Assembly (NCBI GenBank): GCA_947588355.1
Contig: CANPYI010000004.1
Location: 1,244-65,243 of the forward strand
Source of the DNA: an uncultured Clostridia bacterium
GTDB lineage: Bacteria; Bacillota; Clostridia; Christensenellales; UBA1242
Length of the DNA stretch: 64,000 bases
Direction: 5' to 3'
The notes beneath the pieces were generated by a model. That model made no database searches, was not told where the DNA came from, and worked only from the letters and a program-made list of their open reading frames with translations. Position numbers and translations under genes: made by a program. Below, piece by piece: positions 26,840-36,428 of this stretch (the first letter of the stretch is position 1; every line of letters starts with the position of its first letter).

Positions 26840-27463
26840 TTATAATTTATTTACAACAACTTTTGAATATCTAAGCACTTTGTCATTCATTGTCCAACCC
26901 GATTGATACTCTTCCAAAATAATGTCATTTTCTTTGCTTTCATCTTTCATGACTGCAATAACATTGTGTAAATGCGGGTCAAATTGCTTGCCAACTGATT
27001 CGATTTTTTGAACATTCAAAGTGGAAAGAGCGGATAAGATTTTTTCTTCTATCATGTTTATTCCCGTCAAAACTTTTTCGTCAGAAACACTTTTCTTTGC
27101 TTCCTTAAAAGCGTCCAAGCATGGCAAAAACACTTCAATCACACTTTTTATGCCCTCCTGCCTTTCTCGGTCAAGTTGCTCTGCAACTCGCTTGCGATAG
27201 TTGTCAAAGTCGGCTTGCAACCGCTGTGCCAAAGCAAGATATTCTGCCGCAAGGTCTTTTTTTGGAGGACAGCCACACGCACAACCGTCTCCGTTTTCTG
27301 CTTGGTCGTGACATGTGCATTCTTCGCATTCGCACTCATCTTCACAGCATTCGCACTCGTTTTGACAATCGCAATCTTCGTGCTGACAAGTTTCTTCTTT
27401 CTTGTCAATTTCACATTCGTGCGTTTGTTTTTCAAAGTTGTCTTGTTTTTCTTTCTTGCCCAT
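26840..27463 (-). CDS. grpE: nucleotide exchange factor GrpE with a Cys-rich N-terminal extension
   Basis: C-terminal 140 aa is a canonical GrpE (LQADFDNYRKR, FDPHLHNVI). Residues 17-65 hold 14 Cys in CxC/CC patterns. Confidence 0.93.
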   Translation of the reverse strand: MGKKEKQDNFEKQTHECEIDKKEETCQHEDCDCQNECECCEDECECEECTCHDQAENGDGCACGCPPKKDLAAEYLALAQRLQADFDNYRKRVAEQLDRERQEGIKSVIEVFLPCLDAFKEAKKSVSDEKVLTGINMIEEKILSALSTLNVQKIESVGKQFDPHLHNVIAVMKDESKENDIILEEYQSGWTMNDKVLRYSKVVVNKL

Positions 27464-28686: not shown

Positions 28687-29355
28687 ATGTCATTTTACAT
28701 CAACAACACCAACCCAAACAGACCAGGACCAATTTGCGGTAATGTTACAAATGGAATATGTGAAAAAATCTTGATTCAAACGACAAAAGTTTTTGACGCG
28801 TGCGTTTGTTCCACGACAGAAACTGGCATTGTTTTGACCGGCACTGACTTTTTCCCAGCCAATCCTGTTCAACCGCTTACATATGTGTCAGCGGAAAACA
28901 CACAAGGACAAAGTGCAACAATTTCTGACCTTGTGATTGACCGTCTTGAAAGTTGTCCAAACTATGCAAACGTTTCTTTCACTTTGACAATTCCTGTAAC
29001 AATCACCTACAGCGATGCCACTGGTGCACTTGGCTCCGCACTTTCAACAATCACAGTAACAAAATCTGTAATTTTGTTTGTGCCACAACCTGCACTTGCG
29101 CCTATTGACATTGTTGCAACAGGGATCTTCAGCAGCAGAATCGGAAGTTTCACTGCACCAAACATCTTCACTGTGACAGGGTGTATCCAAGTTATTGTAA
29201 GAGTGGTCAGCGTGGTTGATGTCCTTGTGCCATCGTATGGCTATCCTGTTTTGCCACCTTGCAAACAAGCACCACAACAAAGTGCATGTCCAGGGCTTTC
29301 GGATTTGCCAATCTATCCAACAGCGACAGCAGTTGGCACAATTCCACAAATTTAA
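28687..29355 (+). CDS. hypothetical Cys-containing beta-rich protein (possible spore-surface component)
   Basis: Start MSFYINN behind AAGGAGG. T/V/I/S-rich with an N-terminal Cys cluster (ICGNVTNGICEKILIQTTKVFDACVC) and a C-terminal P/Q/C-rich tail. Sigma-K-like -10 CATATCATA at 28649-28657. Confidence 0.6.
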   Translation: MSFYINNTNPNRPGPICGNVTNGICEKILIQTTKVFDACVCSTTETGIVLTGTDFFPANPVQPLTYVSAENTQGQSATISDLVIDRLESCPNYANVSFTLTIPVTITYSDATGALGSALSTITVTKSVILFVPQPALAPIDIVATGIFSSRIGSFTAPNIFTVTGCIQVIVRVVSVVDVLVPSYGYPVLPPCKQAPQQSACPGLSDLPIYPTATAVGTIPQI

Positions 29356-29363
29356 AAAAAATT

Positions 29364-29389
29364 CCATCAGAAAAACTGATGGTTTTTTT
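29364..29389 (+). terminator. intrinsic terminator
   Basis: ccatcag-aaaaa-ctgatgg followed by T7. Confidence 0.8.
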
Positions 29390-29390
29390 A

Positions 29391-29420
29391 TTGTCATACA
29401 AGGCTTTCGTGTGTTATAAT
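29391..29420 (+). promoter_or_regulatory. promoter of the GDPD-family gene (extended -10)
   Basis: TTGTCA-18 nt-TGtTATAAT. The -10 ends only 6 nt before the ATG at 29427, which suggests a leaderless mRNA. Confidence 0.5.
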
Positions 29421-29426
29421 GCAAAC

Positions 29427-30367
29427 ATGAGAAAGAAAATGTTGTACATATCAATTATATCTTTTACAGTATTGTGTCTTTTGTTTGAATTTTTAAAGTT
29501 TTTCACTGACTTCAATTTTTTGTACGTAAGTTTGGCGTTTGAACTTTTTTTGGCACTTTTTCTTTGTTCACTGTTATTTCACAAAAAAACAATTTGTGTA
29601 GGCTGCATTTCTTTGCTTTTAAGCACACTTTTCATCACCCCAAACTGTATAACAATTGGATACAACGATCCCACCGCCTCTCAAACCATTATACATGCGG
29701 GGGGGGGAATTTCAACCTCTCATACTTAAATTGCCAAGAAATCTTTGATGAGGCACTCGATAAAGGGCAAAATCTTATTGAAATCGATTTTTTGCTAAGT
29801 AAAGACGAAAAGGTGATATGCTCGCATCAACTTGAATACATACAAGGATACAGTTTAAATAATCGCCCAACATACCAACAATTCAACTCTTCAATTTTGC
29901 TTGATAAATATCACCCTTTGACTCTGGAGCATATTTTTGAGCAACTGAAAAGCCACAAAAACGCAAAAATAATTTTTGATAGCAAAGAGAATGATAAAAC
30001 AAAAATACTCAGTAAAATTGTTGAAAATGCCAAAAATAACAATTTTGATATTTTTGACAAAATGATTGTCCAAATATATAGCGAGAAAAATTATCAAAAC
30101 ATAAAATCTGATGTCAATTTGTCGCAATTTAAAGAATTTTGGTACACCAATTATGTTTCAAATTTGCTTCCCTCAACTATAAATGCTATATTTGCTGACA
30201 AAAAAGACGTAAGCACTTATGTAATGAACAAACAATTTTGGCTATTTTTCACGCAATTAGGCATGAAAACAAACAAACACATCGCAGTGCATACAATAAA
30301 TGACATGGAAAGTGTGAAATTTTTAGAACAAAAAGGTGTAGACTTAATTTTCAAAGATTATTTTTAA
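29427..30367 (+). pseudogene. membrane-anchored glycerophosphodiester phosphodiesterase family protein, frameshifted at a G9 tract (phase-variable candidate)
   Basis: Frame 1 (MRKKMLYIS..., 3-4 TM) ends IIHAGGG then ISTSHT*. The frame of ORF 29564..30367 continues NFNLSYLNCQEIFDEALDKGQNLIEIDF... (GDPD-like H-x-G-G ... IE-x-D). Ten or seven G would fuse them into one 313- or 312-aa protein. Confidence 0.75.
29699..29707 (+). repeat. homopolymeric G9 tract inside a coding sequence
   Basis: gcGGGGGGGGGaattt read directly from the sequence. Confidence 0.95.
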
Positions 30368-30394
30368 AAAAAAGAGGCAAAAGCCTCTTTTTTG
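30366..30394. terminator. bidirectional terminator between the GDPD gene and rpsI
   Basis: A8-agaggc-aaaa-gcctct-T6. Confidence 0.8.
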
Positions 30395-33781: not shown

Positions 33782-36331
33782 TTAGTCTTGTTTTTCAACA
33801 ACCTCATAAACATTTCCGTTTCCGCCCTTAACTTGAGACTTATAACCATCCTTCAAGTAAGATTGTCTGTCATTTGTGTTTGGATGTTCTGGGTTAAAGC
33901 CTGTAAATTCGCCGCCGCTAACTTCAATTTTGGCTTGTGTTTCATTTGCTTCGTCATAAATGTTTAAAGTCCACTTGCCACTATCATTTGTTGATGTAAA
34001 CTTACCGTTTGCGATTTCCACTGTTCCATTATTTACCAAAACAATAGGCGCTTTAGTTTCAAACACACCACTTTCAATCACAAGATGTCCAGCACGTTCT
34101 GGTTCCATGAATAATTGAGAACCAACATTGATTAGTGCAAGGGTGTTGCTTTTAGAAACAAATTTGCCATTTTCTTTGCTATCTTTGATTGTTAATTTTG
34201 CATTAAACACAATGAATATTGCAGAGTAGTTTGTTGTCAAAGTGTGTCCGTTGAGGTCAAGAGTGATTTGGCTTTTGGCATTTTCAAGTTGAATGTACTT
34301 TCCATCGAAAGTTATATCACTGTCCAAAACAACAGTTTGAGTTTTGGCTGCAGTCAAAGCCGTTCTGAAACTTTCTGCTGTTTTAACGTGAACATTTCCG
34401 TCTGTATATGCCTTTACAGTGTAAGTGTCACTACTTTCTTCTGCATAGAAGCCTTCTGCAACATATGATTCTTTTCCGTCATCGTTTTTAAGTTCGTCAG
34501 GATTGAATCCATGGAACTTTCCGCCCTTTACAATGATGTTTGCAGTTCCGTTTTGAGCATTTGCATTCAAGCAGTTCAAAAGGAAGTTTTTGTTTCCATT
34601 TGTCGTTTGTTTAATATCAAATTCGCCGTCGTTGATTGTGCAAATTCCATGATGAACATATACCGCATGAACATTTCCTTTGAAAGTTCCGTTTTCAATC
34701 GTCAAAGTTCCGCCATAAACGTCCAAAGCATACACATCATCTTGTTTTGCGTCAAATGTGCCATTGCCTGTAACTGTCAATTCTCCACCGTCTCTGACAG
34801 ACACAAGTGACCATCTGTCATTTTCGCCGTATCCTTCTTCGCCATCGTTACTCCAAACATCAACTGTGTTTGAGATTTTGTGTCCAGCAAGGTCAAGTGT
34901 AACATTTTTGTTTGTAACTTTGAAGATTTTTGCAGTATCCAAGGTTATGTCGCTTGTAAGAACGACATATGAATTGTCGTGTTTAAGTGCGGCTGTGAGA
35001 GTGTCAACATCTTTTGCGTAGCGATAATTTTCAGCTTCAGAAACAGTCCAAACCTGCAATTTTTCGTCTGCATTATCAGTGGTTTTTTCAACTTTATATC
35101 CATCATCAACAAAGTTTATTCCGCCAGTCAAACTTTCTGCTTTGTTGTTTGCTGGATTAAATCCGTGGAAAATTCCGCCCCTTACAATAATGTGGGCTGT
35201 TCCGTTTTTATAATATGCATCTTCACAATTCAAAAGATATCTCTTGTCGCTGTGCCCATCTGACAGTTGTTGCATGTCAAATTCTCCACCTTCAACAATA
35301 AGTGTGCCAGTTCTAACATAAACAGCATCAGCATTTCCGTTGAATTTTCCGTCTTTAATGGTCAATTCTCCGCCTTTAACTACAAACACCCAGCAATCAT
35401 CTTTCAAAGCGGTCATTTCGCCAGTTCCTTCAACTGTCAATTTTCCGTTTTCTTCCACAGAAATGAGTGCAAGTTTGTCTTGGCTTCCGTTCCAAATTGG
35501 AGTTTCGTTTTTGATTGTATGACCGCCCAAATCAAGAGTGAATGTTTTTGCCACTTCAATTTGTTTTGTCAAAACAACATCGCCATTGAGTTTTGCTGCT
35601 GAATAATGCTCAATTGCTTTTTCAAGGTCTGCCTCGCTGCCAACAAGAGCAACACCGCTTTCCTCATTCAAGTATGTCACTGTGACATTGTAAGTATCTT
35701 TAAAGAATTTGCCTTCTTCATACTCATAACTTACAGTTACTGTGTATGTTCCTACTTCACTGAAAGCAGCACCAACTGCAACTTTTGTTTCGCCTTTCAC
35801 GGCTTCTGCAGTCACCTTTTGGTAATCTGCTTGTGCAAGATCTTTCTTAGAGTCGTTTTCGTACACGCCCTTCACCTTCAATCCTGTTGTTGTGAAGTTT
35901 TCGCCAACGAGGAATGCGGTGTCAGCACCTTGCGTGTCAAGTTGAATGCCAGTAAGTTCCGGTTCTGCAACTGTGATGTCATAAGTATTTTTGAAGAATT
36001 TGCCATCTTCATATTCATAACTTACATTGACAGTATAAGTTCCTGCTTCAACAAATTCACTGCCCTCGGCAACTGTTGTTTGGCCTTTCACGGCTTCTGC
36101 GGTCACCTTTTCATAGTCTTTTTGTGCAAGTTCCTTTTCAGACTTGTTGTCATACACGCCTTTCACCTTCAAGCCTGTTGTATTAAACTCTTCGCCGGTG
36201 ATGAATGCGATATGAGCATCTTGCGTGTCAAGTGTAATGCCGGTAAGTTTTGGTTCTCCGCACGCAGTGAGCAGAACGCCGCCTACCAAAAGAAAACAAA
36301 AGCAAGCCAAAATTGATAGAATCTTTTTCAT
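33782..36331 (-). CDS. large repetitive surface lipoprotein (2 Ig-like repeats plus 3 beta-helix-like modules)
   Basis: Lipobox GGVLLTAC. Two ~97-aa repeats (LTGI.LDTQ...GTYTV.VSYEYE.GKFFK.TY). Three ~200-aa modules sharing LDL.GH, GG.LTI..G.F.GN..AVYV, GEFD, LLNC, GG.FHGFNP. Confidence 0.85.
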   Translation of the reverse strand: MKKILSILACFCFLLVGGVLLTACGEPKLTGITLDTQDAHIAFITGEEFNTTGLKVKGVYDNKSEKELAQKDYEKVTAEAVKGQTTVAEGSEFVEAGTYTVNVSYEYEDGKFFKNTYDITVAEPELTGIQLDTQGADTAFLVGENFTTTGLKVKGVYENDSKKDLAQADYQKVTAEAVKGETKVAVGAAFSEVGTYTVTVSYEYEEGKFFKDTYNVTVTYLNEESGVALVGSEADLEKAIEHYSAAKLNGDVVLTKQIEVAKTFTLDLGGHTIKNETPIWNGSQDKLALISVEENGKLTVEGTGEMTALKDDCWVFVVKGGELTIKDGKFNGNADAVYVRTGTLIVEGGEFDMQQLSDGHSDKRYLLNCEDAYYKNGTAHIIVRGGIFHGFNPANNKAESLTGGINFVDDGYKVEKTTDNADEKLQVWTVSEAENYRYAKDVDTLTAALKHDNSYVVLTSDITLDTAKIFKVTNKNVTLDLAGHKISNTVDVWSNDGEEGYGENDRWSLVSVRDGGELTVTGNGTFDAKQDDVYALDVYGGTLTIENGTFKGNVHAVYVHHGICTINDGEFDIKQTTNGNKNFLLNCLNANAQNGTANIIVKGGKFHGFNPDELKNDDGKESYVAEGFYAEESSDTYTVKAYTDGNVHVKTAESFRTALTAAKTQTVVLDSDITFDGKYIQLENAKSQITLDLNGHTLTTNYSAIFIVFNAKLTIKDSKENGKFVSKSNTLALINVGSQLFMEPERAGHLVIESGVFETKAPIVLVNNGTVEIANGKFTSTNDSGKWTLNIYDEANETQAKIEVSGGEFTGFNPEHPNTNDRQSYLKDGYKSQVKGGNGNVYEVVEKQD

Positions 36332-36397: not shown

Positions 36398-36428
36398 AGT
36401 TTATCATGTGGGGGGGGGAATTTGTCAA
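36398..36428 (-). promoter_or_regulatory. promoter of the surface lipoprotein gene with a C9 tract in the spacer
   Basis: Minus strand TTGACA-aattCCCCCCCCCacaTGa-TAAACT. The spacer is 19 nt in this sequence, with an extended -10 TG. Confidence 0.6.

Follow-up and report, generated by a model that had tools for sequence, protein, structure and literature searches.

Within the 64,000-nt window of DNA analysed here (G+C = 38.6%), which comes from an uncultured Gram-positive-type gut bacterium of the Clostridia, a perfect run of nine G residues (G9, 29699-29707, with C as its 5' and A as its 3' neighbour) interrupts a gene for a predicted membrane-anchored protein with the fold of glycerophosphodiester phosphodiesterases (GDPDs). 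The run sits in codons 91-94 (A-G-G-G) of a conserved H-A-G-G-G motif, where GCG and the tract together encode Ala-Gly-Gly-Gly, and at its present length it leaves the two halves of the gene in different reading frames. We consider it likely that this is a contingency locus operating at the DNA level, in which slipped-strand changes in tract length would turn the GDPD-like gene reversibly ON and OFF. An earlier note on the same sequence had put forward such a switch, and the proposal is now supported by the conservation of the tract, by its length polymorphism among near-identical assemblies, and by the presence of ON and OFF alleles in relatives.

According to this proposal, the region would form one gene for an envelope enzyme of ~313 aa, with three N-terminal transmembrane (TM) helices followed by a GDPD-fold phosphodiesterase domain, and the poly-G tract in the codons of the H-A-G-G-G active-site loop would gate its expression at the DNA level. 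We infer that slipped-strand mispairing at replication would add or remove one G. A tract of G10 (also G7 or G13) would then give the full enzyme, a tract of G9 or G8 would lead to a stop 6 codons past the tract, and the population would hold a heritable, reversible ON/OFF polymorphism. The benefit may lie in variable remodelling of a glycerophosphate-containing envelope component, such as a teichoic-acid-like polymer or the head groups of lysophospholipids, and the remodelled surface would alter what phages or host immunity see.

The interrupted gene and its predicted product

The frame that opens with the ATG at 29427 reads MRKKMLYIS...TIIHAGGG up to the tract, continues for 6 out-of-frame codons (ISTSHT), and ends at a TAA (29727-29729). 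The frame of the open reading frame (ORF) at 29564..30367 runs on past the tract as GGGNFNLSYLNCQEIF... to its own TAA (Table 1). A recount bore out all of the coordinates in the earlier note, namely those of the tract, the stop, and the continuation in the downstream frame. Its arithmetic was also right: setting the tract to G10 produces a single ORF of 313 aa, setting it to G7 produces one of 312 aa, and the G9 that is present is out of frame. Tracts of G8, G9 or G11 lead to early termination in every case, so the tract is placed, as in known contingency loci, where unit changes in length alter the frame. In the full-length product, the in-frame peptide across the tract region includes ...IIHAGGGNFNLSY.... 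Homologues with 36-43% identity are single ORFs of ~310 aa with a hydrophobic N-terminal third, a V/I-I-H-A-G-G-G motif and a GDPD domain. Because they carry the N-terminal part and the GDPD domain in frame, we read the interrupted region as one gene. In a representative library, the family comprises 3175 proteins at E <= 1e-3 and 99 at E <= 1e-30.

Three or four TM helices had been claimed for the protein, and three is the number that stands. Hydropathy gives segments at residues 5-23, 32-50 and 56-74, and the AlphaFold2 model of the repaired protein (mean predicted local distance difference test score, 88; predicted template modelling score, 0.83) has helices at 2-24, 30-49 and 53-78; neither gives a fourth. 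In the model, strand beta-1 (residues 86-89) comes directly before the Gly loop, and an alpha/beta barrel follows. The assignment to the GDPDs, and with it the join across the tract, is likewise sound. The repaired protein matches Pfam GDPD PF03009 over residues 102-312 with 31.3 bits (gathering cut-off, 23.6), and the family profile aligned to the solved GDPDs 3no3 and 1o1z from position 81, i.e. across the tract, with His90 falling on the His of the canonical HRG motif in 3no3. Foldseek searches with the model returned many GDPD structures at a probability of 1.00, with E values down to 4e-10. Among the matches with this fold were the C-terminal domain of phage K gp155 (9f5m), 2pz0, the phi812 spike (9eul), GlpQ (5t9c) and LpgD (8ghh). 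The modelled domain thus has the features of the GDPD variant of the triosephosphate isomerase (TIM)-barrel fold. In family alignments, H90, E119/D121, H134 and E188, which correspond to the catalytic His of HRG, the E-x-D metal site, the second His and the Glu, are invariant or conserved.

Positively charged residues are found at the N-terminus (MRKK) and in the loop between the second and third TM helices (HKK), which by the positive-inside rule suggests that the catalytic domain faces outward. That the predicted enzyme trims a glycerophosphate-containing component of the envelope from this position is a tentative assignment, and any specific substrate is doubtful. The OFF product is predicted to be a membrane stub of 100 aa in which the catalytic His is present and the barrel is absent, and so to be a null.

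The tract itself is non-random. Runs of G or C in the window number 16401, 3437, 364, 58 and 12 for lengths 1 to 5; none has a length of 6-8, and two have a length of 9. These two runs of at least nine compare with 0.055 expected under a first-order Markov model. In the long ORFs of the window, GGG is the Gly codon used least often (6.8%), and the 21 tract-less homologue loci that were checked spell the H-A-G-G-G motif with GGT, GGC or GGA, never with GGG. The tract is therefore over-represented with respect to both composition and codon usage, as contingency tracts are. The motif is coded in a bimodal way, either without any GGG or with an unbroken run of 8-13 G, which argues that the tract itself has been selected or has grown in a runaway manner. 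The homologue loci, 152 kb in total, contain nine G/C runs of at least 7, and every one of these lies in or just upstream of the GDPD-like gene. The remaining repeats of the window, short ones in low copy number and one of 291 bp in a lipoprotein gene, include no further switch candidate.

Table 1. Positions of the features in and around the GDPD-like gene, in window coordinates
Feature	Position	Strand	Remarks
Two-way terminator-like hairpin, CCATCAG-loop-CTGATGG, A/T runs on either side	29364..29382	.	listed on both strands by the scan
Promoter-like site: TTGTCA, spacer of 18 nt, TG-extended TATAAT	29391..29420	+	11/12 matches, TG present
Upstream frame (OFF product, 100 aa): predicted three TM helices, beta-1 (TIIH), putative catalytic His90	29427..29729	+	
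Putative G9 switch element	29699..29707	+	ON at G10 (or G7, G13); OFF at G8, G9, G11
Downstream frame: remaining GDPD TIM barrel (NFNLSYLNCQE...IEIDF...CSH...DSKE...AVHT...)	29708..30367	+	TAA at 30365-30367
Hairpin GAGGC-AAAA-GCCTC with a T run after it, where the GDPD-like gene and rpsI converge	30372..30393	.	read from the sequence; not listed by the terminator scan

Tract length within the lineage and among relatives

Tract lengths were taken from consensus assemblies, and several of the comparison contigs have a coverage of about 3x (2.8-3.3). The lineage of the window is represented by six assemblies from different samples (the window, L002, L003, L004, L005 and L044), which are at least 99.86% identical over the aligned stretches. 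The window, L004, L005 and L044 have G9, and L002 and L003 have G8; between L003 and the window, the tract indel is the sole difference in 1070 bp. The downstream ORF belongs to a 90%-identity cluster whose products also differ at their N-termini in a way that indicates differing tract lengths, and the DNA confirms these. When JGI metagenome contigs were scanned for exact matches to the window-lineage tract, with its length left variable, none was found, and a later profile scan contributed only 8 further homologue loci.

A comparison of orthologues had been named beforehand as a test of the switch, and its outcome favors the proposal: the tract is kept at the same codons in many homologues, and its length varies. 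The homologues came from GTDB representatives (titled uncultured Christensenella sp., Candidatus Borkfalkiaceae, and Clostridia gut metagenome-assembled genomes (MAGs)) and from ENA, Logan and JGI assemblies. In about eleven homologue lineages (uncultured Christensenellales-type gut MAGs), the same H-A-G-G-G codons hold G8-G13. For L006, L007, L025, L032 and L034 (the last a locus from a gut MAG), the in-frame length is G10, and all are OFF, with G11 in L006, L007 and L032 and G9 in L025 and L034. L026 is in frame at G9, has G9, and is ON. In L027 (3001-3009), the tract is interrupted (GGGGGTGGG), out of frame and decayed, and the N-terminal region is shortened as well. Two proteins whose tracts were read from their N-termini, P0183 (MQGGGGVEG...) and P0025 (...FARGGGIDG...), appear to represent additional OFF lineages; only OFF calls were obtained for them.

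The tract is found in two other positions in this family. Two homologues have it near the N-terminus of the coding region: L018 carries G10, is in frame at G9, and is OFF, and P0224 has CGGGK in the same N-terminal loop. In three further cases, a C9 or G8 tract lies in a putative promoter spacer 84-112 nt upstream of an intact gene, as TTGACA-a-C9-gccaaag-TATAAT in L016 (spacer 17), as C9 in L021 and L036 (spacer 19), and as TTGACA-ggcat-G8-tatga-TATACT in L028 (spacer 18). In a neighbour-joining tree, tract-bearing members are interspersed among tract-less ones, and it is thus likely that the tract has been gained or lost repeatedly.

Profile searches and cluster look-ups identified four 90%-identity clusters in which full-length alleles occur alongside split ones. 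In the L034 lineage, P0163, P0196, P0199 and P0202 are ON and read continuously through ...VVHAGGGIDDK.... Three kinds of OFF form accompany them: P0197 and P0203 end in ...HAGGGLTIKYI and a stop, the frame of G9+ATTGAC in the L034 DNA; P0193 and P0201 end in ...HAGGELTIKYI and a stop (G8+AATTGAC, as read from the protein ends); and P0195 begins MRGGGIDDK... (one G more). L048, which is ON and 98.5% identical to L034, has G9+AATTGAC in its DNA, as compared with G9+ATTGAC in L034. On the AATTGAC background of this lineage, 8 G is OFF, 9 G is ON, and 10 G is OFF. In the L027 cluster, an ON allele of 311 aa is found on 6 contigs, and the OFF forms MRGGISN... and MRWGISN... occur beside it. The P0184/P0220 cluster, whose tract at the H-A-G-G-G codons was likewise read from protein N-termini, has a 318-aa ON protein (P0220) and an OFF form beginning MQGGGHK... 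(P0184), and the P0178/P0224 cluster, of the N-terminal-tract type, has forms of 315 aa and 251 aa. The co-occurrence of ON and OFF alleles in one cluster is the population signature that a contingency locus would be expected to leave.

These data bear on the alternative that the earlier note itself had named, a homopolymer sequencing or assembly error. Here, the true tract would be G10, the gene would be intact and ordinary, and G9 would be a miscall. Homopolymers of 9-10 bases are indeed error-prone, difficulty in calling G tracts has been documented (PMC9187656), and the coverage of the comparison contigs is low. However, G10 is found in none of the six independent assemblies (4 G9, 2 G8), and G11 is agreed upon by two independent assemblies, L006 and L007. 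Moreover, the OFF tract exceeds the ON length in some lineages (G11: L006, L007 and L032) and falls short of it in others (G9: L025 and L034), and because the OFF alleles deviate both ways, a one-directional sequencing bias is ruled out. We thus think it very unlikely that the frameshift is an error of this kind.

A sister strain is informative about selection on the gene. This strain, L001, has 93.6% nucleotide identity across the gene and encodes an intact 313-aa protein. Its tract is also G9, and the frame is restored by one extra nucleotide 15 nt 3' of the tract (attttcaaccttttca versus aatttcaacctctca). Between the window and L001, the ratio of non-synonymous to synonymous substitution rates (dN/dS) is 0.32 in the N-terminal third and 0.29 in the barrel, based on 24.5 synonymous and 35.5 non-synonymous differences (binomial test against neutrality, p = 1.4e-4). 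Since the ratio is ~0.3 for each, both halves have been under purifying selection.

Several observations nevertheless weigh against a functioning switch. First, neither a G10 nor a G7 allele is present among the six assemblies of the window lineage, all of which are OFF. Second, the difference between G8 and G9 could partly be consensus error, as several of the contigs have ~3x coverage. Third, L044 (99.9% identical, G9) shows three mismatches within 12 bp (29919-29930), one of which, TTG>TAG at 29919, places an additional stop in the GDPD domain; if this stop is real, at least one strain is decaying. Fourth, L027 is an example of a switch that is frozen OFF and decaying, and it shows that the tract can degenerate while OFF. 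Fifth, the majority of consensus alleles across lineages are OFF, which is also compatible with relaxed selection. Finally, the Arg of the HRG motif is replaced by Ala across the whole subfamily, and the chemistry and substrate of the enzyme are thus uncertain.

The principal alternative that arises here is that the gene is a pseudogene in this lineage, formerly phase-variable or constitutive and now dead and drifting, with a tract that is still mutable but switches nothing. The uniformly OFF state of the six assemblies, the stop in L044, and the decayed tract and truncated N-terminus of the relative L027 all speak in its favor, as does a comparison with the in-frame sister L001, which on the 3' side of the tract has one nucleotide more than the window lineage. 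But the tract aside, both halves are uninterrupted in five of the six assemblies, and the L044 mismatches, three in 12 bp at ~3x coverage, look like read error. The dN/dS of ~0.3 in both halves also argues against drift, the tract is still a perfect G8 or G9 one step from ON, and lineages of the same design hold both ON and OFF alleles. On balance, we regard a dead gene as unlikely, and a switch whose ON form is reached by slippage as the better account of the locus.

A third possibility is that G9 is fixed and that the frame is corrected at the RNA level, through slippage of RNA polymerase (G9 to G10 in mRNA) or a -1 ribosomal frameshift on G_GGG_GGG, giving a low, set level of a product containing HAGGGNFN. 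Long homopolymers are slippage sites for RNA polymerases, and by sequence reasoning, a -1 shift on the G run would re-pair perfectly and give exactly the G10 product. Against this, no significant structure lies downstream (the fold of 29690-29800 has z = -1.45), and no single rule would serve all alleles, as G11 alleles elsewhere need the opposite shift and G8 here needs +2 or -1. Moreover, the length of the DNA itself differs among near-identical genomes, which recoding does not require, and the promoter-spacer tracts of the same family make sense only at the DNA level. Recoding in place of a DNA switch therefore seems to us quite improbable, although some transcriptional slippage may occur on top of such a switch.

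Last, the tract could be the spacer of an antisense promoter on the minus strand (TTGAAA-16-TATAAT, 29715 to 29688), similar to the promoter-spacer tract at 36410-36418, with the frameshift incidental. A minus-strand scan gives 11/12 matches across the tract, the site is retained in L001, and both G9 tracts of the window share the flanks CATGY-G9-AATTT, a pattern with 0 matches in shuffled sequences. Yet no minus-strand gene follows before the two-way terminator at 29364-29382. We rejected this reading, which we consider barely credible, as the hexamers are absent from the tract-bearing L025, L032, L034, L048 and L006; CATGC simply corresponds to the His-Ala codons, which all of these have in common. 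The spacer of the antisense site is 16 nt including C9; the in-frame G10 would make it 17.

Flanking signals and a second G9 tract

The promoter-like site of the GDPD-like gene is without a homopolymer tract. Only 6 nt separate the end of its -10 element from the ATG, and a Shine-Dalgarno sequence is not visible (29415-29429), so the transcript may have a very short leader or none. The Met5 codon at 29439 may serve as an alternative translation start. On the upstream side, the hairpin at 29364-29382 divides the gene from a 222-aa ORF (28687..29355). Neither Pfam nor NCBIfam gave a match for this ORF, and it does not resemble the gene that precedes the L006 homologue. L004 lacks 109 bp of this ORF (window 28973-29081), which could be a deletion variant or a mis-assembly. 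On the downstream side, the hairpin before rpsI is, from its sequence, probably a terminator shared by the two convergent genes. The families that adjoin the GDPD-like gene vary among the homologue loci with listed neighbours, and because of these differences the gene looks stand-alone.

Apart from the tract in the GDPD-like gene, the window has a single G/C run of six or more, also a G9, at 36410-36418. Read on the minus strand, it is a C9 and lies between a perfect TTGACA (36428-36423) and a TG-extended TAAACT (36403-36398) with a spacer of 19; an alternative -10 element, GATAAA, would give a spacer of 17. Some 65 nt downstream of the site are an AGGAGG and the start codon (ATG, 36331) of a gene (33782..36331, minus strand) for an 849-aa lipoprotein with the lipobox LTAC and adhesin-like/pectate-lyase-like repeats. 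By its position, this second tract is probably a phase switch of the promoter-spacer type. As to variation in its length, one other assembly was found (L014/L047), which likewise has G9. The flanks CATG(C/T)-G9-AATTT, preceded by TTAT(A), are identical at 29694-29712 and 36405-36423 (0 matches in shuffles). At the first tract, CATGC represents His-Ala codons, and the sequence there resembles that of a promoter spacer elsewhere. The sequence coding for the N-terminus of the lipoprotein (35691-36257) contains the 291-bp repeat as a tandem duplication (1.9 copies, 79% identity) that corresponds to two Ig-like module repeats. Elsewhere in the window, a GrpE homologue (26840..27463, minus strand) is unusual in having some 50 additional N-terminal residues, many of them Cys, Glu or His (…CQHEDCDCQNECECCEDECECEECTCHD…GCACGC), which look like a metal-binding domain.

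Relation to known switches and biological meaning

The proposed mechanism is that of a classic homopolymer contingency locus. Intragenic poly-G/C loci of this kind are known from Campylobacter jejuni, Neisseria (the lgt genes, pgtA and hmbR) and Helicobacter (PMC8355987, PMC2192423, PMC2193922, PMC3786947). As in those organisms, a G/C homopolymer of ~8-13 nt lies within the coding sequence, 1-nt indels would switch translation, and such tracts are far commoner than base composition would predict; there, the genes affected typically code for envelope-modifying enzymes. The system here differs in its host, which belongs to the gut Clostridia, and in its target, a predicted GDPD-fold enzyme. It also differs in where the tract lies, as it codes for a conserved active-site Gly loop rather than for a poorly conserved N-terminal stretch.

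The closest precedent in a commensal is the G-tract switch of Bifidobacterium breve, where the pilus genes bbr_0113 and bbr_1889 are turned ON and OFF by slippage between G10 and G11 within the gene (PMC9187656). There, too, the host is a gut commensal and the tract is G, and the reference genome has the gene split into 'a' and 'b' ORFs. The in-frame length was found to be a minority that is enriched in vivo, and equivalent tracts occur across the genus (PMC9187656). The two systems differ in phylum, GC content and target, which in B. breve is a sortase-dependent pilus subunit. Heterogeneity in B. breve was measured by maximum-depth sequencing, whereas here it is known from assembly consensus.

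A second class of homopolymer switches acts through promoter spacers, as in Neisseria opc and porA, Bordetella fim, Mycoplasma hyorhinis vlp and N. meningitidis nspA (PMC6389960, PMC1891110). The tracts between TTGACA and TATAAT/TATACT in L016, L021/L036 and L028 resemble these, as does the second G9 upstream of the lipoprotein gene. In contrast to the established cases, the tracts of this type belong here to relatives and to a neighbouring gene rather than to the GDPD-like gene of the window, and the promoters are putative.

With respect to the enzyme, the GDPD domains of phage K gp155 and the phi812 spike (9f5m, 9eul; staphylococcal phages), which we take to be teichoic-acid hydrolases, share the GDPD TIM barrel with our model, as do GlpQ and LpgD, with TM-scores of up to 0.77 (normalised to the target). 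Characterised GDPDs have only 13-19% identity to the protein, and they have the canonical H-R-G where this protein has H-A-G-G. GlpQ of B. subtilis is a teichoic-acid exo-hydrolase (PMC7086022; PDB 5t9c). LpgD of S. aureus, a lysophosphatidylglycerol phospholipase D, consists of a TM helix and a GDPD domain (PMC10404611; PDB 8ghh). The protein described here resembles LpgD in its N-terminal membrane anchor but has three TM helices rather than one. In the literature searched, none of the characterised GDPD enzymes is reported as phase-variable, and within the searchable literature we found no report of phase variation by simple sequence repeats in Christensenellales or of a phase-variable GDPD.

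Three aspects of the locus therefore appear to be new. First, the host group, uncultured Christensenellales-type Clostridia, extends the range of such switches. Second, the target is a predicted GDPD-fold membrane enzyme. Third, within a single gene family, the tract can occupy any of three positions, including the conserved catalytic Gly loop. A broader reading is that G/C homopolymers serve as a general contingency system throughout a group of uncultured, Christensenellales-like gut Clostridia, much as they do in Campylobacter, and that this enzyme has been captured by such tracts repeatedly and independently, at the promoter spacer, the N-terminal TM loop, and the H-A-G-G-G loop. We would give this broader reading an even chance.

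Phase variation in gut commensals has so far been charted mainly through invertible promoters and methylation, and homopolymer switches are known chiefly from pathogens, the pili of Bifidobacterium being a rare commensal case. The locus described here, together with its dozen-plus relatives, indicates that slippage switches act on envelope enzymes in small-genome uncultured Clostridia. For annotation, this means that 'split' or 'pseudogene' calls of this sort in MAGs should be neither discarded nor silently repaired. The ON and OFF states can be followed in metagenomic time series by counting tract lengths, and both the GDPD-like family and the neighbouring lipoprotein can be nominated as variable surface determinants. 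If the broader reading is true, the GDPD-like enzyme would be a major unrecognised determinant of surface variation in commensal Firmicutes, for example as an editor of phage receptors or antigens, and its OFF state would predominate in vivo.

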